From positions 1,972 through 65,971 of the forward strand of contig CAVCIY010000026.1 in the NCBI GenBank assembly GCA_963602445.1: a stretch of DNA of 64,000 nt, written 5' to 3'. The translations under genes were made by a program, and so were the position numbers. Positions 2,709-61,857 of this stretch are shown one piece after another. Source of the DNA: Lachnospiraceae bacterium. Lineage in GTDB: Bacteria; Bacillota; Clostridia; Peptostreptococcales; Anaerovoracaceae. A model generated the notes under the pieces. It worked only from the letters and a program-made list of their open reading frames with translations. It was not told where the DNA came from and did not search any database. Each line of letters opens with the position of its first letter. Position 1 is the first letter of the stretch.

Positions 2709-2863
2709 CTTGTATTTTGCTTGCAGCATTTAATTTGCAGCATTTTCATTGTATTTTTTCTTGCTGCATTTAATTTGCAATTTTTCCCTTGCATTTTACT
2801 TGCGGCATTTAAATTGCGGATTCTCATTTGTATCTTACTTGCAGTACGCTAAAATCGCAGCGA
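2709..2863. repeat. Degenerate tandem repeat, about 39 bp x 4, in the lysA upstream spacer
   Basis: The units resemble ttgtattttgcttgcagcatttaatttgcagcatttt and recur head to tail with substitutions. Confidence 0.6.
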
Positions 2864-2875
2864 TCAATCGTAAGA

Positions 2876-3559
2876 TTAATCGTCATATGAAGGATAATCT
2901 CCGTATCCCGCTCTTTGCTTCGAGCCGTCAAGATGCTTCCTTACCATAGAAACACCAAGCTTCACATCTCTGTCCTGCAGTGCCTTGAGCATAGAATAAT
3001 GTTCCTCGAGAACTTCTTCCATATGGCTGTTGTCGCGCTTTTGGCCGACCTGGAACTGCTTTGTATAATATTGATAGCTTGTGAGAATATCTGTAAGGAG
3101 TCTGTTGTGTGAAGCTTCATATATAAGTTCGTGGAATCTGTTGTTCAGCTCTGCGGCTTTCTCATAATGTTTCTTCAGAGTATAAAATTCCATCTGCTCG
3201 TATATTTCCTGTATGCTTTCAAATTCCTCAGGAGTAATGCGCTCTATCGCCCATTTGAACGCAAGTATCTCATAAGCCTTACGCATTTCATACATATCAG
3301 CGATATCTCTTTCATCGAATCCAAGAACAAATGCTCCTCTGTTTGGAATCATGTCGAGAAGACCTTCCTGAGCAAGCAGGCGGAAAGCTTCTCTTACAGG
3401 TGTTCTGCTGACATTGTACAGATCACAGATTTTCTGCTCTGTCAGCTTTTCGCCGTTCTTAAGCTTTCCCTGAAGAATATCCTCTCTCAGTCTTATAAAA
3501 ATATTTATAGCAAGAGGAAGTCCGGATACAACATTTTCTTTTTCATTTTTGTAATACAT
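2876..3559 (-). CDS. GntR family transcriptional regulator (FadR/FCD subfamily)
   Basis: The N-terminal winged HTH is GEKLTEQKICDLYNVSRTPVREAFRLLAQEGLL. The C-terminus is helical and FCD-like. Confidence 0.85.
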   Translation of the reverse strand: MYYKNEKENVVSGLPLAINIFIRLREDILQGKLKNGEKLTEQKICDLYNVSRTPVREAFRLLAQEGLLDMIPNRGAFVLGFDERDIADMYEMRKAYEILAFKWAIERITPEEFESIQEIYEQMEFYTLKKHYEKAAELNNRFHELIYEASHNRLLTDILTSYQYYTKQFQVGQKRDNSHMEEVLEEHYSMLKALQDRDVKLGVSMVRKHLDGSKQRAGYGDYPSYDD

Positions 3560-3632
3560 ATAATTTACTGCCTCCTTTTACTTTTATTAACTCCTTTTAG
3601 CGCATACACGTTTAGCCGGGCGTTTTTATATA

Positions 3633-5549
3633 TTACTCGCTCTTAAGCATGTTAATCTTTCCGCCAAACCTGATCATCTTCTTTTCGAGTGACGAAAGAT
3701 TGTGTTTCATATTATAGCTTGCCCCCGTCGTAATATTCTTTACGATTATCTCGTCATTCTCAATCTGCTTTACAGGCTCCTCTATGATAAGCTCATCACC
3801 GAGCTTGATATCGTCATAATCTGCCTCATTTGCAAACACGAGCGGAATAATGCCGCTGTTTATGAGATTTGAACGATGGATTCGCGCAAATGACTTGGCC
3901 ATTACAATTCTCACTCCGAGATAAAGCGGAACAAGTGCAGCATGCTCTCTGCTTGAGCCCTGTCCGTAATTTTCTCCGCCTACGATAGCACACTGTCCTG
4001 CTTCCCTGCATCTTGCAGGAAATTGCTTATCAATCTTTTCAAAGCAATAGTTTGAAAGATGCGGTACGTTTGAGCGGTACGGAAGAATCCTGGAGTCAGA
4101 CGGCATGATGTCGTCTGTGGTAATATTGTCTCCCGCATGAAGAACAACGCTTACCTTCAGAGAATCCGATAAAGCTTCATTCAGAGGGAACGGCTTGATA
4201 TTAGGCCCCATGGCAACAGGCGTATTTTCCTTTGTACAGTTCGTAGGATAAATAATGAAATTGTCATTAAAATCAAAGTTTACAGGCTCGATTTCCTCAA
4301 GTTCTGTTCCGAATCCGGTGGTGAGTACTCCTTCAATCGCTGAAATTGCAGCAGTTTCAGGGCTCACAAGATAGATCAGTGCGTCATTTGTGCCGCTTCT
4401 GCCTTTAAAGTTTCTGTTGAATGTCCTTAGAGATACGCCTGCTGATTTTGGCGACTGGCCCATTCCTATACACGGACCGCACGCATTTTCAATAATTCTT
4501 GCGCCGGCGTTTATCATGTCGGCAAGAGCTCCGTTTGAGGCGAGTTTTGATAAAATTTTGCTCGATCCCGGTGAGATCACGAGACTGACATTTTCATTGA
4601 CCTTCTTGCCTTTAAGTATCTCTGCTACTTTCATAAGGTCGGCATATGAAGAATTTGTGCAGCTTCCGATTGCAACCTGATCAATTTTTATCCTGCCGAT
4701 ATTTTTTACAGAATCTACGTTGTCAGGGCTGTGCGGCATAGCTGCGAGAGGTTCGAGCTGCGAGAGATCTACCTTAAGAACCGAGTCGTATTTTGCGTCT
4801 TCATCTGCGCTCAGAGGTCTGAAATCAGCCCCTCTTCCCTGCGATTCCATATATTCTTTTGTATTTTCGTCACTTGGGAATATCGAAGTGGTTGCGCCAA
4901 GCTCCGCACCCATATTTGTAATGGTTGCTCTGTCGGTAACAGAGAGTGACTTGACACCTTCACCGGTATATTCCACAATCTTACCGACTCCCCCCTTTAC
5001 AGTAAGCTTTTGGAGGACATATAAAATGATATCCTTTGCGGAAACCCATGGTCTGAGCTTTCCCGTAAGCTCTACATTTATAACCTCAGGACATGTGAGA
5101 GAATAAGTGCCCTTAGCCATTGCAACTGCAACGTCCAGGCCTCCTGCACCTATTGCGATCATACCGATACCGCCGCCGGTAGGCGTATGGCTGTCAGAGC
5201 CTATAAGAGTCTTTCCCGGAATACCGAAGTTTTCAATATGCAAATGATGACAAATTCCGTTTCCCGGCTTAGAGAACAAAACCCCGTGTCTCTTTGCCAC
5301 ACTCTTGATAAATTCATGGTCATCAGCATTTTCAAATCCCGTCTGAAGAGTGTTGTGATCGATATAAGCTACAGAAAGCTCTGTCTTGATCTTATCGACG
5401 TCAAGAGCCTCAAGCTGAAGATAGACCATTGTGCCTGTCGAATCCTGAGTGAGAGTCTGGTCTATCTTAATCTTTATCTCTTCACCCGGAATCATTTTTC
5501 CTTCGACAAGATGTTCTTCAAGAATTTTGTACGCTAAAGTTTTCCCCAT
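3633..5549 (-). CDS. Aconitate hydratase (aconitase family, about 640 aa form)
   Basis: Aconitase motifs are present: GSDSHTPTGGG, IGSCTNSS, CGPCIG and the swivel-domain GENYGQGSSREHAA. The start is placed at MGKTLAYKIL (ATG 5549) after the RBS aagggggat. The longer ORF to 5615 lacks an RBS. Confidence 0.85.
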   Translation of the reverse strand: MGKTLAYKILEEHLVEGKMIPGEEIKIKIDQTLTQDSTGTMVYLQLEALDVDKIKTELSVAYIDHNTLQTGFENADDHEFIKSVAKRHGVLFSKPGNGICHHLHIENFGIPGKTLIGSDSHTPTGGGIGMIAIGAGGLDVAVAMAKGTYSLTCPEVINVELTGKLRPWVSAKDIILYVLQKLTVKGGVGKIVEYTGEGVKSLSVTDRATITNMGAELGATTSIFPSDENTKEYMESQGRGADFRPLSADEDAKYDSVLKVDLSQLEPLAAMPHSPDNVDSVKNIGRIKIDQVAIGSCTNSSYADLMKVAEILKGKKVNENVSLVISPGSSKILSKLASNGALADMINAGARIIENACGPCIGMGQSPKSAGVSLRTFNRNFKGRSGTNDALIYLVSPETAAISAIEGVLTTGFGTELEEIEPVNFDFNDNFIIYPTNCTKENTPVAMGPNIKPFPLNEALSDSLKVSVVLHAGDNITTDDIMPSDSRILPYRSNVPHLSNYCFEKIDKQFPARCREAGQCAIVGGENYGQGSSREHAALVPLYLGVRIVMAKSFARIHRSNLINSGIIPLVFANEADYDDIKLGDELIIEEPVKQIENDEIIVKNITTGASYNMKHNLSSLEKKMIRFGGKINMLKSE

Positions 5550-5633: not shown

Positions 5634-5760
5634 ACAGCAGCAAATGCAGTCGCATCCGGATTGCAGCAGTGAATGCAGTCGCATCCGAATCACAGCAGTG
5701 AATGCAATCGCATCTATATAGCAATAGCAAATGCAGTCGCATCCGGATCGCAGCAGTGAA
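5634..5760. repeat. Tandem repeat, 29 bp x about 4.4, upstream of the aconitase gene
   Basis: The unit gcagcag/aa tgaatgcagtcgcatccggat(t/c) repeats contiguously with point differences. Confidence 0.75.
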
Positions 5761-5989: not shown

Positions 5990-8647
5990 TTACTTTCTCG
6001 TTATCTTTTCGTTTATTTTTACATTCTTTTCTTGATCGGCAGCAATAAATTCTCTGATCTGTCTGAGAACATCCTCAACTTCTTCTTCAAATTCTCTTGC
6101 CGACACTCTGAGAACGCCTGAGCTTAATGCCGACAGCTGAATAAGGGCGTCAGAAGTCACAACTCGTACATTATAATGAGGTCCTATCGAATCGGCAAGC
6201 TTCTGAATATACATATCACCTGTCTCGCGCTCCTCGGTAAAGACAATATGAATCCCGTTGCGATCAATCTTTTTTCTCTTTCCGCCCGCAACCTTATATG
6301 CGTCAAATACGAGTACAAGCTCACATCCCTTAAATGCTTTGTAATTTTCAAGTTTTTCTATAAGTTTTTCACGCGCATAATCTATGTCTGACTCAGCAAT
6401 TTTCTTAAGACTGCTCCATGAAAATACCATATTATAACCGTCAACAATCAGATATTCTTTCTTGCGTGCGGCAGTTTTTTGCTTTGGAATCTCCTCACTG
6501 TCCGGATCCGGCATGATAATATAAGATTCTTTTTTCCCGGAAGACGCACCTTGGACATCCGACCCGAATTCACGCTTCATAAAATCGTCAAGCACTCTCT
6601 CGTCATAATCATAATTGTTTTGATTTTCTATTGCGGGATGCATCTTTTTTGCCGCGTACGATCCATCAAAAGAGTCCTCCGTTGGCTCGAATTTCTCATC
6701 TTTCGGAAGATCGACACTAAGATGAGTATATTTGTCCACATCATACCACTTGACATTTTGACCTGCGCCATGCGAGCAAAATACCGAATCAGCTGTATTT
6801 GCGATGTCGCCTTGCGCATCATATCCGTAGGATTCTATTATTTTATCCTGATTGTGGCATGGTGCATATCCGCTCACTGTCAGACTTAGGCGGCCTTTTC
6901 CGTGCGAATAAGATGCTACCTCAGAGCTGTATCCTCTAAGCGTGGAAACAGGTGCGCTGCCCGTAATGACAGCCGTTTCCGCAAAACTTTCTTCTATTTC
7001 AAATGTTCCGTGTCTAAGCTTGATATCATTTACTGCTCTGCCGATATGCTCTGATGGAATCTCCAGCCTGAAGCTGTAAAAAGGCTCAAGCAGTGCGGCA
7101 TTTCCTGATGCCGCTGCTTTCATAAGACCTTGTCTTACTGCTCTGTAGACCGCCTGCCTGAAGTCGCCGCCTTCGGTATGCTTCTGATGTGCTCGTCCGG
7201 CGGCGATCGTAATTCTCATATCTGTGATAGGAGCCCCTATCAGCACGCCTTTGTGTGTCTTCTCCGCAAGATGCGTTATGATAAGGCGCTGCCAATTTCT
7301 GTCAAGGAGATCTTCACTGCATGCCGTCCTAAAGACGAGACCGCTTCCCCTGGGAAGAGGCTCCATCAAAAGATGAACCTCCGCATAATGGCGCAGCGGC
7401 TCAAAATGCCCGGCACCTAGCACAGGAGCGGTAATAGTCTCGCGATACATTATTTTGCCGTCAGTAAATTCTATGTCATAATCAAATCTCTCAGCCACGA
7501 TACTCTTCAGGATTTCTATCTGAATGTCTCCCATAATGTCAGCAAAAATCTGCTGAAGCTCTTCATTCCACTTTATATGCAGCATTGGTTCTTCTTCTTC
7601 GAGAATCTTAAGCTTTGACAAAACCGTCCTCACGTCGGCGCCATCAGGGATTTTGATTCTGTATGAAAGAACAGGCAAAGTCGCAGGATCCGACGCTCCG
7701 CTGTCCGTGCCCATACCCATGCCCGGATAAGTTTCTGTAAGGCCAGTCACTGTACAGATTGTCCCGGCTTTTACTGAATCTGCCGTCTCAAATTTATCTC
7801 CGGAATATAATCTTATCTGATTGACCTTTTCTTTCTTTTCCTCGCCCTTCTCATTCCTGTACGTGAGAAGATCCTTTACGCTGAGATTTCCGCCCGTTAC
7901 CCTCAGATGAGTCAGCCTTCCGCCTGTGTTGTCTCTGCCGATCTTAAAAACTCTGGCCCCGAAATCCGGGCCAAAATGCTGCGCAAGCGTATAACTTGAA
8001 ATTGCATCAAGAAAATCTTCTATGCCCTCCATCTTAAGAGCCGACCCCGAATAACACGGAAACATTTTGCGATTCAAAATCATTTCCGCAACCGAAAGAT
8101 CAGCAATCTCACCGCTTTCAAGATATTTTTCCATTATTTCATCGTCGCACAATGCGATATTTTCGTCTCGCTCGTCCGACTCCATGTCTACGCAGCTGTC
8201 TGAAAGATACTTTCTGATATCTTCCATTATTTTGAAATGATCCGCCCCGACAAGATCTGTCTTATTTATAAATATAAAGACCGGCACCTCGTAGCGCCTC
8301 AGAAGATCCCAAACTGTAGATGTATGCGACTGGACTCCATCTGTCGCGCTTATCACGAGAATAGCATAATCCATTACGGCTATCGCCCGCTCCATCTCCG
8401 CTGAAAAATCAGCATGTCCCGGTGTATCTATCAATGTCACCTCAAGGTCGCCGTAAGTAAACCTCGCCTGACTTGAAAATATAGTAATTCCCCTGCTCTT
8501 TTCGAGTAAATGAGTGTCAAGATGAGCATCCTTATGGTCAACTCTTCCAAGCTTTCTAATGGAGCCCGTCATATAAAGCATAGCTTCTGAAAGAGTCGTC
8601 TTTCCGCTGTCCACATGTGCCAAAATACCTGCTGTAATATGTCTCAT
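5990..8647 (-). CDS. Fusion protein: EF-G/TetM-like translational GTPase (N-terminal, about 650 aa) joined to a YacP/Rae1-like NYN ribonuclease domain (C-terminal, about 157 aa, nt 5990-6463)
   Basis: G motifs AHVDSGKTTL, DTPGH and NKTD are present, followed by EF-G-like domains II-V. The C-terminus LIVDGYNM..ELVLVFDAYKV..IHIVFT..VVTSDALIQ matches the pattern of B. subtilis YacP/Rae1. The start is ATG 8647 after gggaggtga. The reading frame is continuous with no stop between the two halves. Confidence 0.8.
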   Translation of the reverse strand: MRHITAGILAHVDSGKTTLSEAMLYMTGSIRKLGRVDHKDAHLDTHLLEKSRGITIFSSQARFTYGDLEVTLIDTPGHADFSAEMERAIAVMDYAILVISATDGVQSHTSTVWDLLRRYEVPVFIFINKTDLVGADHFKIMEDIRKYLSDSCVDMESDERDENIALCDDEIMEKYLESGEIADLSVAEMILNRKMFPCYSGSALKMEGIEDFLDAISSYTLAQHFGPDFGARVFKIGRDNTGGRLTHLRVTGGNLSVKDLLTYRNEKGEEKKEKVNQIRLYSGDKFETADSVKAGTICTVTGLTETYPGMGMGTDSGASDPATLPVLSYRIKIPDGADVRTVLSKLKILEEEEPMLHIKWNEELQQIFADIMGDIQIEILKSIVAERFDYDIEFTDGKIMYRETITAPVLGAGHFEPLRHYAEVHLLMEPLPRGSGLVFRTACSEDLLDRNWQRLIITHLAEKTHKGVLIGAPITDMRITIAAGRAHQKHTEGGDFRQAVYRAVRQGLMKAAASGNAALLEPFYSFRLEIPSEHIGRAVNDIKLRHGTFEIEESFAETAVITGSAPVSTLRGYSSEVASYSHGKGRLSLTVSGYAPCHNQDKIIESYGYDAQGDIANTADSVFCSHGAGQNVKWYDVDKYTHLSVDLPKDEKFEPTEDSFDGSYAAKKMHPAIENQNNYDYDERVLDDFMKREFGSDVQGASSGKKESYIIMPDPDSEEIPKQKTAARKKEYLIVDGYNMVFSWSSLKKIAESDIDYAREKLIEKLENYKAFKGCELVLVFDAYKVAGGKRKKIDRNGIHIVFTEERETGDMYIQKLADSIGPHYNVRVVTSDALIQLSALSSGVLRVSAREFEEEVEDVLRQIREFIAADQEKNVKINEKITRK

Positions 8648-8696
8648 CTCATCACCTCCCTGTATAATAATGCTGCAGTAAGTCAAGTGAAGTCAA

Positions 8697-10112: not shown

Positions 10113-10153
10113 TTTCAGACCTCATTTTATTGTTATCATTTTTTTAAATCTCA

Positions 10154-10185
10154 TTTGATTGCTGTCGGATTTGATTGCTGTCGGA
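10154..10185. repeat. Perfect 16-bp tandem duplication (tttgattgctgtcgga x2)
   Basis: Read directly from the sequence between the rluB start and the esterase stop. Confidence 0.8.
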
Positions 10186-11805: not shown

Positions 11806-12027
11806 ATTAATCCCCTTTCATCCGCTGCAAACATTACAATTACACAACTCACAATCAGATAAGGCCTAAGTTATCATTGAATACGATGTGATTATTACAC
11901 AATGCATAATCGTGTAACCGCGTAATGCACAATCTCACGCGACATTGTTATATATTATATTACAAATTTCTTATTTTGACTACCTAGGCAAATTGCTTAA
12001 TACAAGTAAGAAATCTTAAATTTTATC

Positions 12028-12072
12028 TCAAAAAACAAAATATGCCGCATCCGCGCAATGCCACGGATGCGG
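12028..12072 (-). terminator. Rho-independent terminator downstream of the small Cys-rich gene
   Basis: Stem ccgcatccg (12045-12053) pairs with cggatgcgg (12064-12072). On the minus strand it is followed by atattttgtttttt. Confidence 0.6.
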
Positions 12073-12160
12073 TAAAAAAATCCAATTATAAAATCAAAAA
12101 TCAAAATGCAGAAATATTCAGAATAGAAAACCAAAAGACAATAAACTTATCCGACTGATA

Positions 12161-12352
12161 CTACCACCAAAGCTCATCGCCTGTATCATACTGGATATTT
12201 GCAATTTCCTGTTCCATAGAGTCGAAGTTATATTCTATCTTTTCTTCTGTTGTCTTGAAGATTCTTGTGCAGTTTCTGCACTCGCTGTTTGTACAGCTTT
12301 TACAAATCTCCATTTTGCCGGCATATCTTGCCATAGTATAATCATTTGCCAT
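12161..12352 (-). CDS. Small Cys-rich hypothetical protein (63 aa)
   Basis: ATG 12352 follows the RBS aagaggagtga. The product MANDYTMARYAGKMEICKSCTNSECRNCTR.. contains CxxC..CxxC and ends in WW. I recognise no family. Confidence 0.5.
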   Translation of the reverse strand: MANDYTMARYAGKMEICKSCTNSECRNCTRIFKTTEEKIEYNFDSMEQEIANIQYDTGDELWW

Positions 12353-12475
12353 ATCATTCACTCCTCTTTGGTTATAACTGCATGCCAAGTTTTCCCTTGG
12401 TTTTCCTTGTCATACACATTATATCACATTAAAAACATATGTCAATAATCTTGCAAAATATATGTCATGTATACA

Positions 12476-13582
12476 TTACGATGCAAGTTTTTTTATATAT
12501 TCTTTTTTTTCTTTCGGAATCTTCAGGCTGTCTCTGATCTTCCCGAGAGCCATCTTCTCAACAGTCTTAGAAAGAAGTCCTTTTTCAAAATATTTAACTG
12601 CTGAATCATATTGCCTGGATATTGCCTCCGCAAAATACCATGCCTGCATCATCTGAACATAATATTCGTCCGACTTAATTAAAGATACTCTTTTCATAAA
12701 ACTTTCCTCAAATGCGTCATCAAGAAAATGATTCATCAGCATCTTTATACCGAATCGCACAGTGTATATGTCATTTAATGATATCCACTTCAAGGCATAA
12801 GGCAGCAGCTTTTCTTTTTCCTTTTTGAAAACAGGAGGATTCAGACCGTCGCATGTCGCCCAATTATCTACATATTTGAGGAAAGTTTCTGTCATTGTCA
12901 CACAAGTATCGAAATCTTTAATCTCATGAAGTAAAAATCCGTGAAGATTATTTTCTTCATAATATCTGTGCGGCGTTGAATTCAGAAATGTCAGGATATC
13001 ATCCTTTGAAAATTCCGAAAAAATACTTTTGGCATATTTCTTTAAGACCGGGACTCTGACACCTAACACAAGACCTTTATCTACAGTAGGCATGAGCCTG
13101 CTGTGAAAGTCTCTGTAAGACGAATCACTCATGGAAAGAAGAGTCTTTCTTATATTCCATACGGCAGAATCTCTTCTTTCAAGCTCATCATCCGATATAA
13201 AAATGCCCTCGCTAATCATATTGATTTTCTGCGCGCGTGAAAGCTTCTTTATCGCTGCTTCCCTTTTCATTGCGGTGCTTTTGTCCGGGTATATCTCAAG
13301 ATGTACAAGCTTAGCCTCGCCCTTTGCTCTCGTATATTTTGCTCCTTTTCCCTGATTGTGTTTTTTTAGGCGCTTATGGATGTCATTTGTCCATCCCGTA
13401 TACAGGCTGTCATCACCGCATCTGAGCATATATACATAATTGAATTGCTCGTCATCTGATTGTTTTTTTTCAATTCTTTCTTCATCAATTCTTTCTATGA
13501 GTCTTTCTTCAGGTTTTTCAGCATTATCCTGCTCGTCACGCCGCTCGTTATGTCGATTGTTTCCATACTTTTTTTCAGACAT
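12476..13582 (-). CDS. Fusion protein: GIY-YIG nuclease domain (YhbQ/UPF0213-like) joined to an AlkD/AlkC-like DNA alkylation repair (HEAT-repeat) domain
   Basis: The N-terminal half is YVYMLRCGDDSLYTGWTNDIHKRLKKHNQGKGAKYTR..MKREAAIKKLSRAQK, a GIY-YIG pattern. The C-terminal half (YRDFHSRLMPT..LGVRVPVLKKYAK..YYEENNLHGFLL..VDNWATCD) resembles the DNA_alkylation family. Confidence 0.7.
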   Translation of the reverse strand: MSEKKYGNNRHNERRDEQDNAEKPEERLIERIDEERIEKKQSDDEQFNYVYMLRCGDDSLYTGWTNDIHKRLKKHNQGKGAKYTRAKGEAKLVHLEIYPDKSTAMKREAAIKKLSRAQKINMISEGIFISDDELERRDSAVWNIRKTLLSMSDSSYRDFHSRLMPTVDKGLVLGVRVPVLKKYAKSIFSEFSKDDILTFLNSTPHRYYEENNLHGFLLHEIKDFDTCVTMTETFLKYVDNWATCDGLNPPVFKKEKEKLLPYALKWISLNDIYTVRFGIKMLMNHFLDDAFEESFMKRVSLIKSDEYYVQMMQAWYFAEAISRQYDSAVKYFEKGLLSKTVEKMALGKIRDSLKIPKEKKEYIKKLAS

Positions 13583-13605
13583 TCCTTAATTCTCCCTAAA
13601 GATCA

Positions 13606-13693
13606 CTCTCGTCCCGAAAGCGCAAGCCCAGCCAAACTCTGCCCAAAAACTTATTCTCGTCCCGAAAGCGCAAGCCTGGCCAAGCTCTGCCCT
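13606..13693. repeat. Tandem repeat, 48 bp x about 2
   Basis: ctcgtcccgaaagcgcaagcc(c/t)(a/g)gccaa(a/g)ctctgccc occurs twice, 48 bp apart. Confidence 0.8.
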
Positions 13694-14708: not shown

Positions 14709-15572
14709 TTATTTTTGCATTCCGTGTGTCTTGCCAAGCTTCTCCAGGAATGCCGTCAATTTTTTTCTTTTTATTATACATATCAAAACGATTATAATAA
14801 TGGCAGCAGCAACTATTGCAGCGCTTATAAAATTGTGTCCGTAAATCAAAACACCCATAAGAATTGATATACTCATTGCGGGAGTTCTTCCGGCAAGTGA
14901 GATGATAAAGAAGTCGAAAGCATCTACATCAGTCGCACCTGCTATATATGAAACAATATCCTTTGGAAGTCCGGGAATCAAGTATATCAGAAAAACAACT
15001 GTCATAGCCTTTTTTGTCTTCATCATCTTTTGATACTTTTCATATCTTTCTTCCCCGCAAATGACCTTCACGGCATTTTTCCCAAGAAGCTTTGCGAGGT
15101 AAAATGTTATTGCAGTACCTACAAAAGCACCCACAATGGTGAGGACAAATGTCAGCAGGAAGCCGAAAATATATCCTCCCGCTATCTGGATAACCTGCCC
15201 CGGAAGCACGCTGATAACTATCTGCATGACCTGGCACACAAGATAAACTATGATTCCCGCATTTTTGTAGCCGGAGATCCATGCATCGAAATCCTTTACG
15301 GACTTGAAATTTTCAACTATATCAGGATTGTGCTTGTAAAAAAGGATCGGAATCAGCACAATGATCGCGATTAAGAGCACCAGCTCGGCAATATAAAATA
15401 TCTTTCTTCCGACAGAAGGTGAAGCATTGTCGCTTTCCGAAACTTTGCTCTTTTGCGAAGCATTATCATTTTCTGATGTGCCGTCATTTTCTGATGTGCC
15501 GTCATTTTCTGAATGTCTCTCATCTTTCAAATAATCATTCGATTTTTCATTTTTATTTTTGTTTTTTTTCAT
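14709..15572 (-). CDS. TVP38/TMEM64 (DedA-related) family membrane protein with a repetitive N-terminal tail
   Basis: The core is VLPGQVIQIAGGYIFG..LIPGLPKD. The N-terminus carries ENDGTS x3. Confidence 0.75.
   Translation of the reverse strand: MKKNKNKNEKSNDYLKDERHSENDGTSENDGTSENDNASQKSKVSESDNASPSVGRKIFYIAELVLLIAIIVLIPILFYKHNPDIVENFKSVKDFDAWISGYKNAGIIVYLVCQVMQIVISVLPGQVIQIAGGYIFGFLLTFVLTIVGAFVGTAITFYLAKLLGKNAVKVICGEERYEKYQKMMKTKKAMTVVFLIYLIPGLPKDIVSYIAGATDVDAFDFFIISLAGRTPAMSISILMGVLIYGHNFISAAIVAAAIIIIVLICIIKRKKLTAFLEKLGKTHGMQK
15466..15519. repeat. In-frame 18-bp x 3 tandem repeat inside the TVP38 gene (encodes ENDGTS repeats)
   Basis: tcattttctgatgtgccg is repeated contiguously. Confidence 0.85.
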
Positions 15573-24047: not shown

Positions 24048-24127
24048 TTTATGCCTCCGTATCTTCGGGTCTCCGTATCTTCGGTGCCTTTTCGATGACA
24101 TTTATCCGCATTTTACATTCCGTATTT

Positions 24128-40489: not shown

Positions 40490-40612
40490 TTCCGGCAAGT
40501 GCAAGGCAGATGCCTGAAACATACAGCTGCACTTCGGCAAGTGCAAGGCAGATGCCTGAAACATACAGCAGCACTTCGGCAAGTACGAGGCAGATGCCCG
40601 CAAACGTGTGAC
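40490..40612. repeat. Tandem repeat, 42 bp x about 2.9, in the permease leader
   Basis: cttc(c)ggcaagtgcaaggcagatgcctgaaacatacagc(t/a)gca is repeated. Confidence 0.85.
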
Positions 40613-42776: not shown

Positions 42777-42904
42777 TTTAAGATATGATATTTTAAAGTT
42801 GTTAGAATAATCAGAATGTTCAGGACAAGAATATTCAGGACAACTGAAATATTATATTATTAGATATCATTAGAAATTAAAAAGACATTAAAAATGTCAA
42901 ATGT

Positions 42905-44784: not shown

Positions 44785-44932
44785 ATATTCACATATATCG
44801 CCGGCATGACCTCTTTCGCAGCATATTCAAAAAGCAGTACTGTCTAATCCGACACTGGATATTCATATGCATCGCCGGCATGACCTCCTCCGCGATACAT
44901 TTACAATCATTGCTGCCTAATCCTGCACAATA
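44785..44932. repeat. Tandem repeat, 74 bp x 2. The second copy overlaps the stop codon of the helicase gene.
   Basis: atattca(c/t)at(a/g)(t/c)atcgccggcatgacctc..ctaatcc occurs twice, 74 bp apart. Confidence 0.75.
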
Positions 44933-48844: not shown

Positions 48845-48960
48845 TGCTGAGCAGCCTGCGCTGCGCCGCATCATCTTGACGCCGAGCAATCTGTTTATCT
48901 GCGCCGCATTATCTTGCTGCTGAGCAGCCTGCGCTGCGCCGCATCATCTTGACGCCGAGC
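48845..48960. repeat. Tandem repeat (72-bp period with 36-bp substructure). One copy contains the last 7 codons and the stop of the downstream-most gene.
   Basis: ctgctgagcagcctgcgctgcgccgcatcatcttgacgccgagcaatc occurs at about 48845 and again at about 48917. Confidence 0.8.
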
Positions 48961-50431
48961 AATCCGCATAAGTGTCAAAAGTCACCTTATCTACAACCTT
49001 CATTAATTCATTGTCATAAACAACGAAATTCAGGCCTCTCTTGTTTTGGCAATAGTTCACGTCATCGATAGTTATCGTGCTTGTCGTGCCGGCATAAGAA
49101 CCGCAGCTTGTCACAGAATAGAATGTATTCTTGTTTCTGATGCTGCCCGAAAGACTTGCCTCGCTTCCTGAAATAAGCGATTCACTCACGCCGTTTTCAG
49201 GCGAAATAACCGCGGCATAGCTCCATCTCATCTTGTCTGTCAGATCCTTTTTCAGACCGAGCTTCTTCAGACCTGCTTTGACCTCGTCGGTAAGTCCCGC
49301 GCTTGCATCATCTGTCGCAGCGATAAATATAGTATAACTGTCGTCATCTATCTCTTCAAGATATTCTTCCATATCGTCTATATGCACAAGCTCGCAATTC
49401 TTTTTAATATGGTCATAATAATCCCTCGTCGACTCATATTGCTCATCCTCGACAGGCTTCACATCATACTCGTCACGAAGAAGCTCGCCGATATATTTCG
49501 ACATTTTTATCGCGCCCCATAGGTTTGCATGGTCTGCCGCATTCTCCTTCGGAGATTCTATGTCGAGCGACTCGTAAATCTCAGTCGAACACATGTTATA
49601 ATAGTCAAGGTCGTTTTCCTCGGCATATTCTGTAAGAGTGTTGTTGTAGGAGTCATTCATCGGATTGTTTGGCTGAGAGATAAGGACAAGCTCAATGCCT
49701 TCGTCCTTGCAAAGCTTAACAGTCTTATCCATATAAGTCTTCATGACGTCCGGAATTTCCTGCCTCGACTCTGTATTTCCGTTGCTTTCAAATGTCGGAT
49801 ACTCGCCCGTTCCGTAAGTTTCTATAGGTGAAAATCCTTTAAGCTCACTGTACTTGGACTCGTCAAAAACAAAATCATATTCGGTCAGGTCCGACCATCT
49901 TGTGTGAAAGCGTATATTTCTGAGATAATAGCTCTCTTCATTTTGAGATTTGTCTATCTTACAGATGTCAGATACTGCCTCACGCTTGACGGAAGACCAT
50001 TTCATCGAGTCCATACACTTTCGGATCAGGCCTTCGTAAGTATTTATCTTGCTTCCGGGATGAATCTGAAACAGAAATCTCGTGTCGAGAACTACGACCT
50101 GTGGGCTTTGGAAACGAAGTGCTTCCTTCAGCCAATAATAACTGAGAAATATGCTTTGCTGTTCGCTCCCGAGATTGTAGCTTCTGATGCCGTAATCATT
50201 GTAGATTTCCTGCGGCGAAAATGCATTTACCGTGACACTCGAACCGAGGAAAAGTACATCTACGGTATTTTTCTCCATCTCGTAGAATTGATTATATGAA
50301 GACGTAGTCGGCCAAATATTATTTTTGAGAATATATTTTGGCATAACCACTTGGTTTATCCAGTGAAGCGACAGGCATAGGATAAGCAAAAATGCAGCAG
50401 CCTTTATTACATTTGAAATATGTTTTCGCAT
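48944..50431 (-). CDS. Membrane-anchored SGNH/DltD-like protein, the probable partner of the adjacent MBOAT
   Basis: It has an N-terminal TM segment and an FLGSSV block reminiscent of DltD/SGNH block I. Its start ATG 50431 lies 2 nt from the MBOAT stop and has the RBS ggaggc. Confidence 0.6.
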   Translation of the reverse strand: MRKHISNVIKAAAFLLILCLSLHWINQVVMPKYILKNNIWPTTSSYNQFYEMEKNTVDVLFLGSSVTVNAFSPQEIYNDYGIRSYNLGSEQQSIFLSYYWLKEALRFQSPQVVVLDTRFLFQIHPGSKINTYEGLIRKCMDSMKWSSVKREAVSDICKIDKSQNEESYYLRNIRFHTRWSDLTEYDFVFDESKYSELKGFSPIETYGTGEYPTFESNGNTESRQEIPDVMKTYMDKTVKLCKDEGIELVLISQPNNPMNDSYNNTLTEYAEENDLDYYNMCSTEIYESLDIESPKENAADHANLWGAIKMSKYIGELLRDEYDVKPVEDEQYESTRDYYDHIKKNCELVHIDDMEEYLEEIDDDSYTIFIAATDDASAGLTDEVKAGLKKLGLKKDLTDKMRWSYAAVISPENGVSESLISGSEASLSGSIRNKNTFYSVTSCGSYAGTTSTITIDDVNYCQNKRGLNFVVYDNELMKVVDKVTFDTYADCSASR

Positions 50432-50432
50432 T

Positions 50433-52787
50433 TTAAAAGCCTCCGTATATAAAATCTGCCGCATCGAAGCCTATTCCGTAGGTTCCGAAAATCCATACGC
50501 TCCATATTGCGCACAGGTAAATGATCCATCTGATTATCAGACTTTGTCTGTTGAACCAGTCTCTGATTTTTATGCCGTTTTCCTGTACGGCACTTACAGC
50601 GATAAGAATCAGAACGCTGACAGCAAGAATCTCGAAATCCTTTTGGCTGAGGCCGAAATCGAAAATCGAGTTGTCGAAAAATATCCACGGATTGAAATTG
50701 CTGAACATAGCACCGATCATCATGAATCCTTCCGCAAGAGTATCAGCTCGGAAAATGATCCACGCAACCATTACGAGGAATGATGTAATGATCATGTCTA
50801 TGATTTTTCGTGCCTTAGAATCCTTAGAAAGGGAAATCTTCTCAAGAATAGCGTCCTTCGGTTTATGAATCGCGTCACCTATTATCTGATATACCGCATG
50901 CATAAGTCCCCAGACAATATATTTCCATCGGCTTCCGTGCCACAGTCCGCTGACCGCAAATGTGCATATAAGATTGAAGTACTTGCGCACCTTGCCTTTT
51001 CTGTTTCCGCCGAGCGGAATGTAAATGTAGTCACGCAGCCATTCGCTGAGTGATATATGCCATCTTCTCCAAAATTCCTTGATCGATGTCGAGAAGTAAG
51101 GATGGTTGAAATTGTTTACAAGCTCTATCCCGAACAATCCTGCGACACCTCTCGAAATCGTCACGCACGAGAGAAAATCCGTATAAAGCTGAATGCTGTA
51201 TAAAATCCCTGCAAGAAGAATATAGCAGCCCGAATAAACTTCCGAATTTTCAAATATATAATCAACGACTATCGCAGACTTTTCGGCGATCATATACTTT
51301 AAAAACACTCCCCAAATGATCAGCTGCACACCGCGCATGATTTTCTCGAAGTCATAAGCAGTACCCTTGTACAGGGTCTCACTGAGCTGAGAATATCTCG
51401 ATATCGGGCCCTGTATGATAATAGGGAAAAATGATACATAAAGAGTATATTTTAGCGGATTTTTCTGTGCAGAGCAGTCCCCTCTGTATACATCTACAAG
51501 ATAAGAGATAATCTGCATAGAGTAAAATGAAAGTCCTATCGGAATAATCCATGAAATTTCTTTGCCTCCGGCAGACGAGCTTTCTATCAGATCTCCAAAC
51601 TTAGTAACGATCAGCGGTGCCGCCGAAAATATAATACCAAGCGCCAGCACAAATTTCATCAATGCGCTTCCTGCATTTTTTGAAGCTTTGCTTCCGCCCG
51701 CAGACTTATCGGCAGGTGCGAAAGCCTCTCTCTCACCTTCCACTCTGTCAGCAGTTGCCGGGGCTTTCTGTCTCGAAACTTCGGGTTTTGAATCTTCAGG
51801 CCTCGAAGCATCCCCCTCACCTGCCGCTCTGTCAGCAGTTGCCGGGGCTTTCTGTCTCGAAACTTCAGGCTTTGAAACTTCAGGCCTCGAAGCATCCCCC
51901 TCACCTGCCGCTCTGTCAGTAGGTGCCGGGGCTTTCTGTCTCGAAACTTCAGGCTTTGAAACTTGAGACTCTGAAGCAATTCTCTCACTTACGGCTCTAT
52001 CCGCATGCCTATAATCCGCAGGCCTCGAACCCGGATGCTCGTAAGCACCCCTTTCTCTTACTGCTCTGCCTGCGGGTACGAAAGCCTCAGGGCCTAACTC
52101 TGCATGCCTTGAAGCAACTCTCGCCCTTGACGCTCTGTCTGAAGGTGCGAAAGCCTCAGGACCAAACACGGAACCCTCCGGCTTTGAAGCTTCATGCCTC
52201 GAAGGTGCATGACCGTAAGAATCAGGCCTCGAACCTGAATGCTCGTAAGCATTCCTCTCGCTTGACACTCTGTCCGCAGGATAGCTGCGTGCGTCTTGCC
52301 TCTTTCGCATTTGACGTCTGTCACGCTCCCTAGGAGAGCCGTTTACAATCTTTTCGGTATATTCCTCAGATCTGCCCCTTTTTGCATTCAGAGGCATCAT
52401 TTTCCGCGGACCGTCCGCATTCCTTGCCTCATCACGCGCCCGCAGACCGTCCGCCACACATTCACTTTCCTTCTTTTCCGTGCGCTGCAGGCGGCCTCTC
52501 GCAGCATCTAAAATAAGTGCCGCCAGATAACTTATCAGAATCGACGCTCCAAAGACAATAAGCTGCATATTGTCATCTGACACCTGAAAACAGAAATATA
52601 CGCTCGCCGCCAGCAGCACGAGCCATCTTCCTTTTTTCGGAATAATATAAAAAAGAATAACTGCCAAAATAACAAAAATATAATATCTCGCAGCCACATA
52701 ACTCATGGCTGTTTTATGTATGCATTCCAGTAATCCAAGAAAATACTGACCCACGTTAATTTGCTCCTTTTTCTGCATATGTCGCAC
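50433..52787 (-). CDS. MBOAT family O-acyltransferase (AlgI/DltB/PatA-like) carrying an intrinsically repetitive insertion of about 290 aa
   Basis: The C-terminal two-thirds has the MBOAT pattern (FW.RWHISLS.WLRDYIYIPLGGN, GLWHG). The N-terminal TM helices are separated from the rest by a Pro/Ser/Ala/Arg-rich repeat region. The start is uncertain: GTG 52754 follows aaggag, and ATG 52706 is also possible. Confidence 0.8.
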   Translation of the reverse strand: MRHMQKKEQINVGQYFLGLLECIHKTAMSYVAARYYIFVILAVILFYIIPKKGRWLVLLAASVYFCFQVSDDNMQLIVFGASILISYLAALILDAARGRLQRTEKKESECVADGLRARDEARNADGPRKMMPLNAKRGRSEEYTEKIVNGSPRERDRRQMRKRQDARSYPADRVSSERNAYEHSGSRPDSYGHAPSRHEASKPEGSVFGPEAFAPSDRASRARVASRHAELGPEAFVPAGRAVRERGAYEHPGSRPADYRHADRAVSERIASESQVSKPEVSRQKAPAPTDRAAGEGDASRPEVSKPEVSRQKAPATADRAAGEGDASRPEDSKPEVSRQKAPATADRVEGEREAFAPADKSAGGSKASKNAGSALMKFVLALGIIFSAAPLIVTKFGDLIESSSAGGKEISWIIPIGLSFYSMQIISYLVDVYRGDCSAQKNPLKYTLYVSFFPIIIQGPISRYSQLSETLYKGTAYDFEKIMRGVQLIIWGVFLKYMIAEKSAIVVDYIFENSEVYSGCYILLAGILYSIQLYTDFLSCVTISRGVAGLFGIELVNNFNHPYFSTSIKEFWRRWHISLSEWLRDYIYIPLGGNRKGKVRKYFNLICTFAVSGLWHGSRWKYIVWGLMHAVYQIIGDAIHKPKDAILEKISLSKDSKARKIIDMIITSFLVMVAWIIFRADTLAEGFMMIGAMFSNFNPWIFFDNSIFDFGLSQKDFEILAVSVLILIAVSAVQENGIKIRDWFNRQSLIIRWIIYLCAIWSVWIFGTYGIGFDAADFIYGGF
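51743..51975. repeat. In-frame 84-bp x about 2.8 tandem repeat inside the MBOAT gene. More degenerate copies extend to about 52300.
   Basis: ctctgtcagcagttgccggggctttctgtctcgaaacttc.. recurs at 51743, 51827 and 51911. It encodes a 28-aa unit, SKPEVSRQKAPATADRAAGEGDASRPE. Confidence 0.85.
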
Positions 52788-53033
52788 AAAATGCGACCGG
52801 GGAGAAAATATACATCCTTATTTTTTCGCATTCAGCGTAATTATAACATATTTTGATATCATTATTACATGATATTATTATTACAACTTTTTCGGTCAGT
52901 TATCGGCTTCACAAGCACCCAAAATATGCATTTATCAATGTTAAAAATAATCATTTGACGAAACAGGAAAGCACGCATTATCAAGGCCGAAAGCATCTGC
53001 GCGCCAAGGTCAAAAACATCCGCATGCCAAGGC

Positions 53034-53071
53034 TGAAAAAAACAGGGAAAACACATTTCATGCTTTCCCTG
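53034..53071 (-). terminator. Rho-independent terminator of bioY
   Basis: On the minus strand, cagggaaagc pairs with gttttccctg and is followed by ttttttt. Confidence 0.65.
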
Positions 53072-53076
53072 CTTTC

Positions 53077-53140
53077 ATTAATCAAAGTCTGTCAAAATTT
53101 GCAGCTGTCATTATCAAAGTCTGTCAAAATTCGCAAAATC
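53077..53140. repeat. Tandem repeat, about 32 bp x 2, just downstream of bioY
   Basis: atcaaagtctgtcaaaatt occurs twice. Confidence 0.75.
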
Positions 53141-54694: not shown

Positions 54695-54759
54695 AAAAAT
54701 ACCTCTGTTTTTACTAAACACCAACTATATCCAATTCATATTCTCAGTCAGATCATAAG

Positions 54760-54868
54760 CTCGTCCAAAACATGCACGCGGCATTGCAAGCCTTCGCTCT
54801 GCCAACTTTTCCGCTCGTGCAAAATCCGCACGCGGCATTGCAAGCCCTCGCCTCGGCCGCTGCACCGC
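54760..54868. repeat. Tandem repeat, 54 bp x 2
   Basis: ctcgt(c/g)caaaa(c/t)(a/c)(t/c)gcacgcggcattgcaagcc is repeated. Confidence 0.8.
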
Positions 54869-55209
54869 TTGGCTTTACGACTTGACCTTTACGCTCGGCT
54901 CTCGCACCCGGCTTAGAGATTCATCGCAAGCAGCATAAAAAATACGCATTGATAACTGAGTATAACATAAAAAAGTACCTTCGTTCATTAAAAATTGTTT
55001 TTTATACAACATGACGCCCGCAAAATATCAAAATAATTGCGGACGTCATATCTTTTATTAATAGCAAATTGTATCGTAAATCCATCATTGATGGTGATGG
55101 GCAGGTTAAATTTGTGATGGGCTTGATGGTGGTGATGGCAGGATAACTTACTGCCGCACAAGCCCATCACGGTTTTCAGGTTTGTATATGGCTTATTCTT
55201 AAATTCAAA

Positions 55210-55491
55210 TTATATTCCCTTGCCGCTGCGTAAGCTACCGCTGCGAAAATTGCTGCTGCGTAAGCTGTCGCTGCGAAAATCGTTTCCGCTTAAATTGCCG
55301 GCACTCAAATCACTGTCGCCTAAGTGACTGTGACAACCGCCTCCAAGGGCACAATGAGCACAATTGCCGCCGCATGAGGACTTTCCCTTTTTCTTATCCC
55401 TCATGAGTTTGGCTGAAATCGACACAACTATTGCGGCCAACACCAGTATAACGACTATCGTTCCTATGTTATCTGCAAGCCATGCCATCAT
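55210..55491 (-). CDS. FeoB-associated Cys-rich membrane protein with a repetitive C-terminal extension
   Basis: It has an N-terminal TM segment followed by CGGNCAHCALGGGC. The tail contains an in-frame 30-bp x 2 repeat (55225-55284). Confidence 0.75.
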   Translation of the reverse strand: MMAWLADNIGTIVVILVLAAIVVSISAKLMRDKKKGKSSCGGNCAHCALGGGCHSHLGDSDLSAGNLSGNDFRSDSLRSSNFRSGSLRSGKGI

Positions 55492-58477: not shown

Positions 58478-58690
58478 CTATACCATGATTTTTCTCGCAA
58501 GCTCTTCACTTATGGCAACTCTTGACTCTTTCACATTTACTATAACGTTGCCGGATAGAGAAGTAATGACCGTAACTGTTCCACCGACATTAAAGCCCAA
58601 ATTTTCAAGGTGTTTTTTCACTTCGGGGCTTCCGCCGATTTTTTTCACGATATTTTCCTCTCCGACGTTAGCAAGTGCTAATGGAAACAT
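58478..58690 (-). CDS. feoA: FeoA family protein (second copy)
   Basis: 70 aa, with LENLGF..G pattern. Confidence 0.8.
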   Translation of the reverse strand: MFPLALANVGEENIVKKIGGSPEVKKHLENLGFNVGGTVTVITSLSGNVIVNVKESRVAISEELARKIMV

Positions 58691-58752
58691 CTACTCACTC
58701 CTTTTCAGATATTTCATTCAAGGGTACTTCCTGTATTTTAAACAGGATTGGT

Positions 58753-58806: not shown

Positions 58807-58937
58807 CACCAATATCAGAATTTTCTTTAAAGTTTAGGATTTTTTTACTAGTTTACATTATGCAACTGTTTTTTTCGTTTCGAGATATGCATCTTAAACA
58901 TGTAGTTGTTTTTTTTTCAGAGTTTACATTATGCAAC

Positions 58938-58966
58938 TTGTTTTTACAAATAAAGTAATATATAAT
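58938..58966 (+). promoter_or_regulatory. Promoter candidate for the DtxR-family regulator gene
   Basis: TTGTTT (58938-58943), a 17-nt spacer, then TATAAT (58961-58966). Confidence 0.4.
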
Positions 58967-58991: not shown

Positions 58992-59360
58992 ATGGCATTA
59001 CAGGAATCAGGAGAAATGTATCTCGAGACGATACTCATGCTCTCACAGAAAAACAATCTCGTCCGCTCTGTTGATGTTGCGGAATACATGGGATATTCAA
59101 AGCCGGCTGTCAGCCGCGGACTTGCAAAGCTGAAGCAGGAAAGATATATATTGATAGATCAGGACGGTTATATCGCACTTACGGAGAGCGGACGTGTTGT
59201 CGCAGAAAAGATGTACGAGCGCCATGTTCTTTTGTCAAGCTTTCTCATGCAGCTTGGTGTCGATGAAGAAACTGCTTCACAAGACGCATGCCGCATAGAG
59301 CATGTCGTGAGCGACAAAAGCTTCGAGGCTATGAAAAAATATATTGAAAAATATCTGTAG
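58992..59360 (+). CDS. DtxR/MntR family metal-dependent transcriptional regulator (short form)
   Basis: The sequence is SGEMYLETILML......VRSVDVAEYMGYSKPAVSRGL.KL. It is divergent from the feo operon. Confidence 0.85.
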   Translation: MALQESGEMYLETILMLSQKNNLVRSVDVAEYMGYSKPAVSRGLAKLKQERYILIDQDGYIALTESGRVVAEKMYERHVLLSSFLMQLGVDEETASQDACRIEHVVSDKSFEAMKKYIEKYL

Positions 59361-59441: not shown

Positions 59442-59446
59442 TAAAT

Positions 59447-60796: not shown

Positions 60797-60875
60797 TTTT
60801 GCTCCTCCATTTCAATAAGACTGCCAAAACACCATTTAATAACCGCTATCTAAAACTCTGTTTTGTAATTGGCAA

Positions 60876-61544
60876 CTAAGGCTCCATTTTGTAACCGACA
60901 CCGCGAACTGTCTGTATCAGTTTTCCGGATACTCCCAGCTTTGTTCTCAGCGTACCGACATGAACGTCGACTGTACGGCTTTCCCCGATAAAGTCCGAAC
61001 TCCATACTGACGAAAGAAGGTTATCTCTCGAAAATACCTTCCCCGGATTTTCCATAAACAACTTAAGAAGATCATACTCTTTCAGAGTCAATGCTATATT
61101 TTGCCCGTCTGCTTCCACAGTATGACGTGCTTCGTCAAGCACGATTTTTCCGCACGTTAAAACAGGAAATTTTTCCTTCGGACGGGCACGTCTCAAGACA
61201 GCTTTGATCCTAGATACCATTTCCATCATTCCAAACGGCTTGCAAAGATAATCGTCTGCTCCAAGATCAAGCCCGATTACCTTGTCATATTCCGTTTCCT
61301 TTGCTGTTGCCATTATTACCGGAATGTCTGCCGTATCACTCGACGAACGCAATTTTTTCAAAATACTGATGCCATCCTCCCCGGGGAGCATGATATCAAG
61401 AAGTATAAGCTCAGGAAGCTGTGAATTCACAGCTTCCCAAAAAGGTTCGCTGTCAGAAAAGCCCTTTGCCTCAAATCCGGCCATATTAAGTGTATAAAGC
61501 ATCAATTCGCGGATGCTGTCTTCGTCTTCAACATAATAAATCAT
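60876..61544 (-). CDS. OmpR/PhoB family response regulator
   Basis: The receiver domain (LLDIMLPGEDG) is followed by a winged-helix domain (VDVHVGTLRTKL..RGVGY). Confidence 0.9.
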   Translation of the reverse strand: MIYYVEDEDSIRELMLYTLNMAGFEAKGFSDSEPFWEAVNSQLPELILLDIMLPGEDGISILKKLRSSSDTADIPVIMATAKETEYDKVIGLDLGADDYLCKPFGMMEMVSRIKAVLRRARPKEKFPVLTCGKIVLDEARHTVEADGQNIALTLKEYDLLKLFMENPGKVFSRDNLLSSVWSSDFIGESRTVDVHVGTLRTKLGVSGKLIQTVRGVGYKMEP

Positions 61545-61744
61545 ATTTTTCTCCTTTTTCAGGACATTATATTTGGTTTATATCTTCCATTGCGATCTGA
61601 CTCTTAAAAATAACAACTGTCATGTTACACCGAAAATAATGAAACATCTCTACTTACATTACAACTATAAGACATAAATTTCAAATTGTTTATCTATAAT
61701 ATGTAAAATTCGAGTAAAAATTTTTCAAAGCATGCTTGAGCTAT

Positions 61745-61857
61745 AATCGCTCAATGCACAGCGTACGGATCGCAAAGCATTCGCGCTGCACGATATCCTC
61801 ATTGTACATCACACGCATCGCACGGTATCCGCATCGCAAAGCACCCGCATTGCACAA
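61745..61857. repeat. Degenerate tandem repeats (about 30-bp units, gcac/gcat-rich)
   Basis: Related units cgcatcgcaaagca(t/c)(t/c)cgc..tgcac recur three to four times. Confidence 0.55.

Follow-up and report, generated by a model that had tools for sequence, protein, structure and literature searches.

Extreme, size-specific density of locus-unique minisatellites in an uncultured lineage of Clostridia

Why should a housekeeping region of a bacterial chromosome be crowded with short tandem duplications, each with a repeat unit of its own? The question is raised by a stretch of 64,000 nucleotides (nt) from a genome assembly of a Lachnospiraceae bacterium (GCA_963602445.1, contig CAVCIY010000026.1, positions 1,972 to 65,971 of the forward strand), referred to below as the window, in which head-to-tail direct repeats occur both in intergenic spacers and inside genes. 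A preliminary description of the window listed 15 repeat loci and attributed them either to an unusually high rate of short tandem duplication or to tolerance of, or selection for, longer spacers and untranslated regions (UTRs). Variable-number tandem repeats (VNTRs) and bacterial genomes rich in tandem repeats are already well known, and the objects themselves are ordinary; the novelty lies in a lineage whose minisatellites, each locus with its own unit, reach an extreme density that depends on unit size. What is striking is a 10- to 30-fold excess limited to units of 15-60 base pairs (bp), its presence in two sister species only, and births and deaths of arrays between strains that are 99.8% identical.

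Tandem Repeats Finder (TRF) was run on the window, and an array was defined by a period of at least 10 bp and a score of at least 50, overlapping calls being merged. TRF returned 69 rows at a score of at least 30, and 30 independent arrays satisfied the definition, with a total length of 2.3 kb and a density of 0.47 per kb; each of 20 dinucleotide-preserving shuffles gave 0-1 arrays (about 0.3 on average). A direct repeat search added two further, diverged arrays, for about 32 independent low-copy minisatellites with units of about 11-84 bp (mostly 15-55 bp) in 2-5 copies. Many are old and diverged (69-80% matches by TRF), and the nested periodicities of 14/28, 24/48, 15/30 and 16/32 bp that TRF reports at single arrays fit repeated rounds of duplication at one site. 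All 15 loci of the preliminary description exist, 14 of them as tandem arrays (12 by TRF, two by the repeat search) and one, at 58840-58945, as a non-adjacent pair. Two of its unit sizes have to be corrected: the locus at 25860 is 24 bp × 4.1, equivalent to 48 bp × 2 and not 47 bp, and that at 38790 is 48 bp × 2.1, not 47 bp × 3. Its statement that nearly every longer spacer is affected has to be corrected as well: with refined gene starts, arrays are present in 18 of the 26 spacers of at least 100 nt and in no shorter spacer, and they account for 21% of all spacer DNA. The intergenic picture is also incomplete, as about ten arrays lie in called coding sequence, including mutS and mutL.

These arrays are VNTR or minisatellite loci in the ordinary sense. 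They consist of head-to-tail direct repeats with units longer than about 9 bp (30 TRF arrays with periods of 10-84 bp, and the two diverged ones), and they share with the loci used in multiple-locus VNTR analysis every defining feature tested: low copy number, head-to-tail arrangement, an intergenic or in-frame position and polymorphism between strains by whole units.

To place the density in context, we compiled 85 comparator loci totalling 1.43 Mb, comprising 80 mutS-centred loci of GTDB species representatives (among the matches listed) and five loci of closer relatives identified by way of homologues of MutS and AlaRS; TRF settings and the crude caller of open reading frames (ORFs) were identical for all. 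The species itself was not among the GTDB loci listed, where the best MutS match was 63% identical. We found 1.90 intergenic arrays per kb in the window against 0.188 in the comparators (10-fold, P = 9e-13) and 0.22 against 0.047 coding arrays per kb (4.7-fold, P = 1.5e-5), and for arrays with a score of at least 80 the difference was 22-fold (0.297 against 0.013 per kb, P = 2e-19, all by Poisson test). The 17 closest GTDB loci among the matches listed, with MutS 50-63% identical, have 0-1 arrays each. Thus, over 1.43 Mb and by one method, the window is clearly distinguishable from related Clostridia, about 10-fold in spacers and about 5-fold in coding sequence.

The excess depends strongly on unit size. 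At periods of 1-6 bp there is one array in the window and two in the comparators, numbers too small to weigh; at 7-9 bp there is no excess (none against 19), and at 10-12 bp the window has 0.7-fold the comparator frequency. Above this size the excess grows steadily, from 2.8-fold at 13-18 bp and 7.4-fold at 19-24 bp to 18-fold at 25-36 bp and 30-fold at 37-60 bp. Perfect two-copy duplications behave in the same way: with units of 6-12 bp they are as frequent in the window as in the comparators, whereas with units of 13-24 bp there are five in the 64-kb window against two in 1.43 Mb. The excess is therefore a minisatellite-scale phenomenon and not general slippage.

The repeat-rich trait occurs in two sister species and is missing from their next relatives. 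Relatives at 67-68% identity in MutS or 80-82% in AlaRS have 0-0.14 arrays per kb; those at 80-82% in AlaRS have 0-0.13 per kb, with low scores only, and include loci on contigs of 1.6 Mb and 265 kb whose names suggest long-read assemblies. In the sister species (GCA_963644445.1, L090 below), whose MutS is 82% identical, four arrays occur in 8.7 kb (0.46 per kb). These lie in the MutS linker (42 bp × 3), the MutL linker (36 bp × 5.2 and 18 bp × 3.2) and the miaA-integrase spacer (17 bp × 7.8), and all differ from the window arrays in both unit and site. The DUF896-mutS spacer, for example, is 181 nt long in the window, with arrays making up about 60%, and 19 nt long in L090, whereas the miaA-integrase spacer has 21 nt in the window and 234 nt in L090, including a 132-nt array. 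The different sites and units indicate that the arrays are younger than the split between the two species and arose independently in both. A separate observation concerns miaA of L090 (6103-6992), which is called as two pieces, one of 193 amino acids (aa) without a Pfam match and a 96-aa IPPT fragment, beside the 17 bp × 7.8 array; possible reasons for the split are a frameshift, a pseudogene or faulty assembly.

As the source contig is of metagenome type, mis-assembled or over-polished repeats have to be considered as a source of the arrays. We retrieved 25 contigs of the same species by exact-protein look-ups, drawn from independent samples and assemblers (megahit, Logan and NCBI metagenome-assembled genomes, MAGs) and in most cases sharing 97.5-99.9% identity with the window. 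Over 10 kb, the arrays were reproduced base for base by at least nine independent assemblies that came from different samples and pipelines, and independent short-read assemblies of other samples carried them at 99.8% identity, with differences by whole units. Distinct insertions and deletions of at least 8 bp relative to the window were mostly tandem gains or losses, the clearest exceptions being deletions of 54 and 98 bp, and arrays inside genes keep the reading frame. An artefact is thus largely refuted, and we regard this explanation as highly improbable, even though contigs assembled from short reads of the species frequently break within arrays. Such ends were seen in contigs L081, L082, L087, L094, L097, L098, L102 and L105, at window positions 25931, 29679-29710, 40578-40595, 51840 and 52859, and an AT-rich array at 29647-29696 (19 bp × 2.6, 74% matches) is the end point of several of the strain contigs; this suggests that copy-number heterogeneity within samples breaks the assembly graphs. 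Short-read contigs of the species still have 0.40-0.56 arrays per kb, so that short-read assembly alone fails to explain the low densities of the comparators.

The same contigs reveal turnover, in answer to the suggestion of the preliminary description that strains be compared for copy-number polymorphism: copy number differs by whole units at 7-8 of the approximately 24 arrays covered. The array between the ireB terminator hairpin and the ribosome-binding site of ruvX (25862-25960) has two, four or five units of 24 bp depending on the strain. The MutS array (21538-21580) has lost one 15-bp unit in strain L084, and one 42-bp unit is missing in L093 from an array upstream of the permease gene (40488-40598; 42 bp × 2.6, 94% matches). 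The locus at 38338-38435 (20 bp × 2.2 and 24 bp × 2.5) carries an extra 24-bp unit in most strains (at 38376), and that at 38801-38913 (48 bp × 2.1, 87-93%) is 48 or 98 bp shorter in strains. Differences of -84, -69, -54 and -342 bp affect the region at 51732-51964, within the gene for an MBOAT acyltransferase; the 54-bp loss starts at 51965, the edge of the array, and the 342-bp loss also takes flanking loop sequence. A separate 36-bp insertion at 52439 in two strains is 86% identical to the sequence on its left.

Simple duplications are polymorphic as well, with one of 11 bp found only in the window, one of 13 bp only in L087 and one of 10 bp only in L096; the perfect 11 bp × 2.0 array at 35867-35888 is single-copy in strain L093. 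These polymorphisms show births of arrays or the exact reversal of births. The youngest perfect duplications have a periodicity of 0-1 bp past two copies, that is, practically no flanking microhomology (n of about 5); examples are the perfect arrays at 10153-10185 (16 bp × 2.1, 1 bp past two copies) and at 24206-24245 (20 bp × 2.0, without microhomology).

Inside genes the arrays are subject to a filter on reading frame. Periods are divisible by three in 11 of 12 arrays within ORFs, compared with seven of 18 intergenic ones (P = 0.007 by Fisher's exact test), and the sole exception lies within the non-coding upstream ORF extension of the permease. That extension was considered as a coding repeat protein and rejected, as its translation is not protein-like and gene callers start downstream. 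The in-frame arrays are found in the N-terminal part of a VTT-domain ORF (15466-15512; 18 bp × 2.6, perfect), the inter-domain linker of MutL (19807-19869; 30 bp × 2.1, 93%), a loop of the MutL N-terminal domain (20511-20577; 30 bp × 2.2, 91%, an insertion absent from relatives), the C-terminal linker of MutS (15 bp × 2.9, perfect, encoding EKYEN repeats), a hypothetical ORF of 187 aa (31885-31931; 15 bp × 3.1, 93%), an ACPS-domain ORF of 422 aa (43656-43713; 21 bp × 2.8, 72%), a DUF3427 helicase (45687-45786; 24 bp × 4.2 or 12 bp × 7, 84%), the MBOAT protein (84 bp × 2.8, 95%, the strongest array of the window, and in a hydrophilic loop at 52192-52249, 30 bp × 1.9, 78%) and the C-terminus of a small FeoB-associated protein (55220-55280; 30 bp × 2.0 or 15 bp × 3.7, 90%). 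In alignments, the MutL and MutS arrays stand out as insertions that relatives lack, located in linkers between domains or in a surface loop. Both MBOAT arrays (ORF 50433-52787, minus strand) belong to a repeat-built hydrophilic insertion of about 300 aa with SRPEVSKPEVSRQKAPA...DRAAGEGDA units, placed between the N-terminal membrane helices and the catalytic MBOAT core. The in-frame position of these arrays, in linkers and loops, indicates that the duplication process acts everywhere and that selection decides which products survive.

Our interpretation, to which we give a probability of about 0.7, is that the arrays record an unusually high input of tandem duplications of minisatellite size, specific to this clade, on which selection acts as a filter. 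New arrays would be born through RecA-independent replication misalignment, template switching or faulty processing of displaced strands, after which ordinary in-register slippage would gain or lose whole units. In coding DNA, selection would leave only in-frame arrays in linkers and loops, while spacers would tolerate any period and hence grow; the arrays would then be mostly by-products rather than devices. Of the alternatives offered in the preliminary description, the unusually high rate of short tandem duplication is the one favoured, by the in-frame arrays in essential genes, the strain-polymorphic duplications of 10-13 bp, the equal density of the sister species at other sites and a normal level of purifying selection, with a ratio of nonsynonymous to synonymous polymorphism (pN/pS) of 0.16 over 336 single-nucleotide polymorphisms (SNPs) among strains. 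Selection for UTR expansion gained no support.

Several points weigh against this interpretation, and we infer raised input, and its molecular cause, with these in mind. Input is deduced from density and polymorphism and not from a rate, and both could also reflect slower loss of arrays or weaker selection against them. On this alternative a normal duplication rate would be combined with poor removal, because selection on spacer length is weak, the effective population is small or deletion bias is low, and it is consistent with the persistence of many old arrays and with an intergenic fraction of 14.8% in the window against 8.2% in relatives, a difference that is only partly explained by the arrays that can be detected. 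Most comparators are MAG contigs from short reads, taken around mutS or alaS, with crude ORF calls, and the genome-wide extent of the trait is an extrapolation from 64 kb of the species and 8.7 kb of its sister. The scarcity of microhomology is not predicted by classical slipped-strand models, although it was seen in only about five duplications, and no candidate replication or repair defect was found within the window, where MutS and MutL look intact and beyond which the other candidate genes lie.

We nevertheless consider retention in place of input to be unlikely. Selection is at work, as intergenic diversity among the strain SNPs is about half of synonymous diversity and pN/pS is low, a value that also disfavours generally relaxed selection. 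Arrays are enriched 4.7-fold even inside conserved genes, and strains at least 99% identical often differ both by new duplications and by lost units, so deletion is active. A general relaxation would also not predict an excess confined to units of at least 13 bp.

Could the spacer arrays be selected regulatory devices, that is, repeated operator, promoter or UTR modules, or contingency loci whose copy number tunes downstream genes? Many lie 20-60 nt upstream of start codons and vary in copy number between strains, and the DUF896-mutS spacer includes a weak 16 bp × 2 array that duplicates the ribosome-binding-site region. Each locus has its own unit, however, with no motif common to one factor, coding regions are hit by the same process, the arrays are not conserved in the orthologous spacers of the sister species, and the arrays affect genes with housekeeping roles, not surface or contingency genes. 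The predicted folding does not exceed that of random units: array z-scores averaged -1.54, with 12 of 32 below -2, and random window segments tandemised in silico averaged -1.76, with 36% below -2. RNA or single-stranded DNA structure was accordingly rejected as a property of the arrays, the signal being an artefact of repetition. A regulatory origin of the spacer arrays is thus improbable.

The non-adjacent pair is operator-like and was counted in favour of such devices. It consists of a 35-nt segment present twice, at 58840-58874 and 58911-58945, the copies being 71 bp apart and each containing the quasi-palindrome AGTTTACATTATGCAACT. The pair lies in a 300-bp divergent region between feoA (58479-58691, minus strand) and a gene for a DtxR-family repressor (58992-59360, plus strand), and it is not a tandem array; on its sequence and position it is probably a pair of operators.

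A different origin, from a dispersed family of mobile or interspersed elements that inserted into spacers and was then amplified, is brought to mind by the placement of arrays between co-directional genes, which resembles that of the mycobacterial interspersed repetitive units (MIRUs). In MIRU-VNTR loci, tandem units of 40-100 bp lie in spacers between operon genes and are polymorphic in copy number, and the units form a sequence family common to about 40 loci, with conserved classes. No unit is common to any two loci of the window, in contrast, and window arrays also occur inside genes. An all-against-all alignment of units gave a mean score of 5.96 and a maximum of 12, against a mean of 5.90 and maxima of 10.5-20 for random segments, and unit base composition equals background, so that a shared motif or family was rejected; no terminal inverted repeats or cores common to the units were found. 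Several arrays are duplicated local native sequence: the perfect array at 24206-24245 copies the stop-codon end of the DUF896 gene, and others copy the ribosome-binding-site region and the end of a MutS helix. We therefore see very little chance that a dispersed family is involved, and the preliminary description was right that the units are unrelated between loci and do not form a family of repetitive extragenic palindromes or miniature inverted-repeat transposable elements. It was right, too, in setting aside clustered regularly interspaced short palindromic repeats (CRISPR), with which the arrays share short direct repeats in non-coding DNA; window copies abut without unique spacers, number at most about five, and are accompanied by no cas domain in Pfam scans of 40 ORFs.

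If input is raised, which function might have changed? A mismatch-repair defect was rejected: MutS retains GDFYEMF, the Walker A motif GPNMAGKST and DEIGRGTSTYDG, MutL retains its ATPase motifs, DQHAAHERIFFE and CPHGRP, the arrays in both proteins lie in linkers, and units of 7-12 bp are not in excess, those of 1-6 bp being too few to weigh. Flap-processing defects (yeast rad27, the 5'-nuclease of E. coli polA), loss of single-stranded DNA exonucleases and replisome mutations raise duplications of about 5-100 bp and make minisatellites unstable, with mismatch repair left intact. Judged by this analogy, flap processing, single-stranded DNA exonucleases and the replisome are candidate causes. 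The window resembles these cases in size range, in its intact MutS and MutL and in the lack of a short-unit excess, an analogy of outcome only. Duplications in rad27 are flanked by direct repeats of 3-12 bp, unlike the youngest events in the window with their 0-1 bp, a feature that might reflect staggered breaks mended by fill-in or end-joining.

A bolder proposal, which we offer tentatively and hold to be possible though doubtful, is that the two species share a heritable mutator phenotype, specific to tandem duplications of a certain size, that would generate units of about 13-85 bp with microhomology scarce or absent and leave short-unit repeats untouched. It would stem from an alteration, particular to the clade, of lagging-strand flap processing, single-stranded DNA exonucleases, end joining or the replisome, and would result in the lengthening of spacers and the insertion of disordered linkers in essential proteins (MutS, MutL and the MBOAT protein). 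If this were true, the clade would be a natural experiment for a factor that normally suppresses the birth of minisatellites in bacteria. If the arrays do reflect a mutational bias, a comparison of repair and replication genes between the repeat-rich clade and its repeat-poor sister clades could reveal a minisatellite-limiting factor of Firmicutes.

Our literature search found nothing specific on such a lineage or on a general prokaryotic baseline for minisatellites. The one usable benchmark was Burkholderia pseudomallei, in which a 'preponderance' of arrays has been described, about 70% of them intergenic and mostly with units of 6-9 bp in 4-10 copies, or about 609 arrays as calculated from the percentages of that paper (PMC1853098). 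The window differs in its units of 15-85 bp, its 2-5 copies, its locus-unique sequences, its density of 0.47 per kb and its lack of a short-unit excess. Taking the B. pseudomallei genome to be about 7.25 Mb, as we assume, the corresponding figure is about 0.08 arrays per kb by that paper's own criteria. In practical terms, the window arrays are ready markers for strain typing, they break short-read assemblies of the organism, and they inflate spacer and protein lengths, which is relevant to MAG annotation.

The remaining spacer arrays are distributed along the whole window. Between a GntR/FCD gene and that of a LysA-like decarboxylase, an array at 2705-2844 (39 bp × 3.6, 75% matches) covers 66% of the spacer, and another at 5635-5756 (29 bp × 4.2, 76%) lies 19 nt upstream of the aconitase start codon. 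The array at 13594-13689 (48 bp × 2, 83%, by repeat search) takes up 86% of the spacer between the Na/Ca exchanger and a GIY-YIG gene, and the DUF896-mutS spacer contains a further one at 24105-24189 (14 bp × 6 or 28 bp × 3, 80-87%). Upstream of alaS, an array at 29273-29328 (19 bp × 3.0, 81%) separates the start of the gene from a complete T-box leader (29358-29586, minus strand, 123 bits), the sole match in an Rfam scan of the whole window; leader and start are 111 nt apart here, as against 31 nt in relative L111 and 124 nt in the repeat-free L113, and this distance was considered but not kept as a ruler for insertion. Around the xanthine/uracil permease gene, arrays lie at its stop codon (38987-39031; 18 bp × 2.5, 74%) and immediately upstream of the called permease start at 40384 (40400-40442; 22 bp × 2.0, 86%). 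Others occupy a convergent spacer (42813-42843; 15 bp × 2.1, 93%), the NUDIX-helicase spacer (44785-44940; 74 bp × 2, about 75%, by repeat search) and 78% of the spacer upstream of rubrerythrin (48849-48961; 35 bp × 3.1, 72%). The BioY-MBOAT spacer alone has three, at 52854-52885 (16 bp × 2.0, 93%), 52982-53040 (23 bp × 2.5, 77%) and, 4 nt past the BioY stop codon, 53071-53135 (32 bp × 2.0, 90%). The last two are found upstream of an EamA transporter gene (54759-54869; 54 bp × 2.1, 79%) and between the genes for a Na/Pi-PhoU protein and a response regulator (61769-61865; 32 bp × 2.7 or 16 bp × 3.8, about 70%). Two long spacers, at 11806-12475 (670 nt) and 26304-26582 (279 nt), have no detectable array, no Rfam match and no ORF of at least 80 aa; repeats that have decayed, a small gene or an RNA of unknown kind could lie there.

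The window itself is an ordinary housekeeping region of the chromosome of an uncultured, gut-type, Anaerovoracaceae-like species of Clostridia, as the label 'Firmicute core region' had correctly suggested. Its best named relatives are Anaerovorax odorimutans for MutS (about 60% identity) and an 'Anaerovoracaceae bacterium' for AlaRS (74%). GC content is about 43%, GC skew on the plus strand is negative throughout, and nearly all genes lie on the minus strand; a tRNA search of the 64 kb found none. Pfam scanning of 40 large ORFs identified, besides the genes named above, an rRNA methylase, a pseudouridine synthase, a methionine gamma-lyase, a Xer-like integrase, MiaA, MetAP, TRAP and ABC transporters, FeoAB and a two-component system.

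Two of these ORFs have unusual domain combinations. A 368-aa ORF (12476-13582, minus strand) joins a GIY-YIG nuclease domain to an AlkD-like DNA_alkylation repair domain in one protein; at the corresponding place downstream of the Na/Ca exchanger, relatives L091 and L092 have other genes. An 898-aa ORF (5990-8686, minus strand) joins an EF-G/TetM-like translational GTPase (GTP_EFTU and EFG domains II-IV and C, aa 15-613) to a YacP/Rae1-type NYN ribonuclease domain (aa 746-894). Its junction is open through a plausible hydrophilic linker, without a stop codon, and such a fusion of a ribosome-binding GTPase with a ribosome-associated nuclease merits a study of its own.

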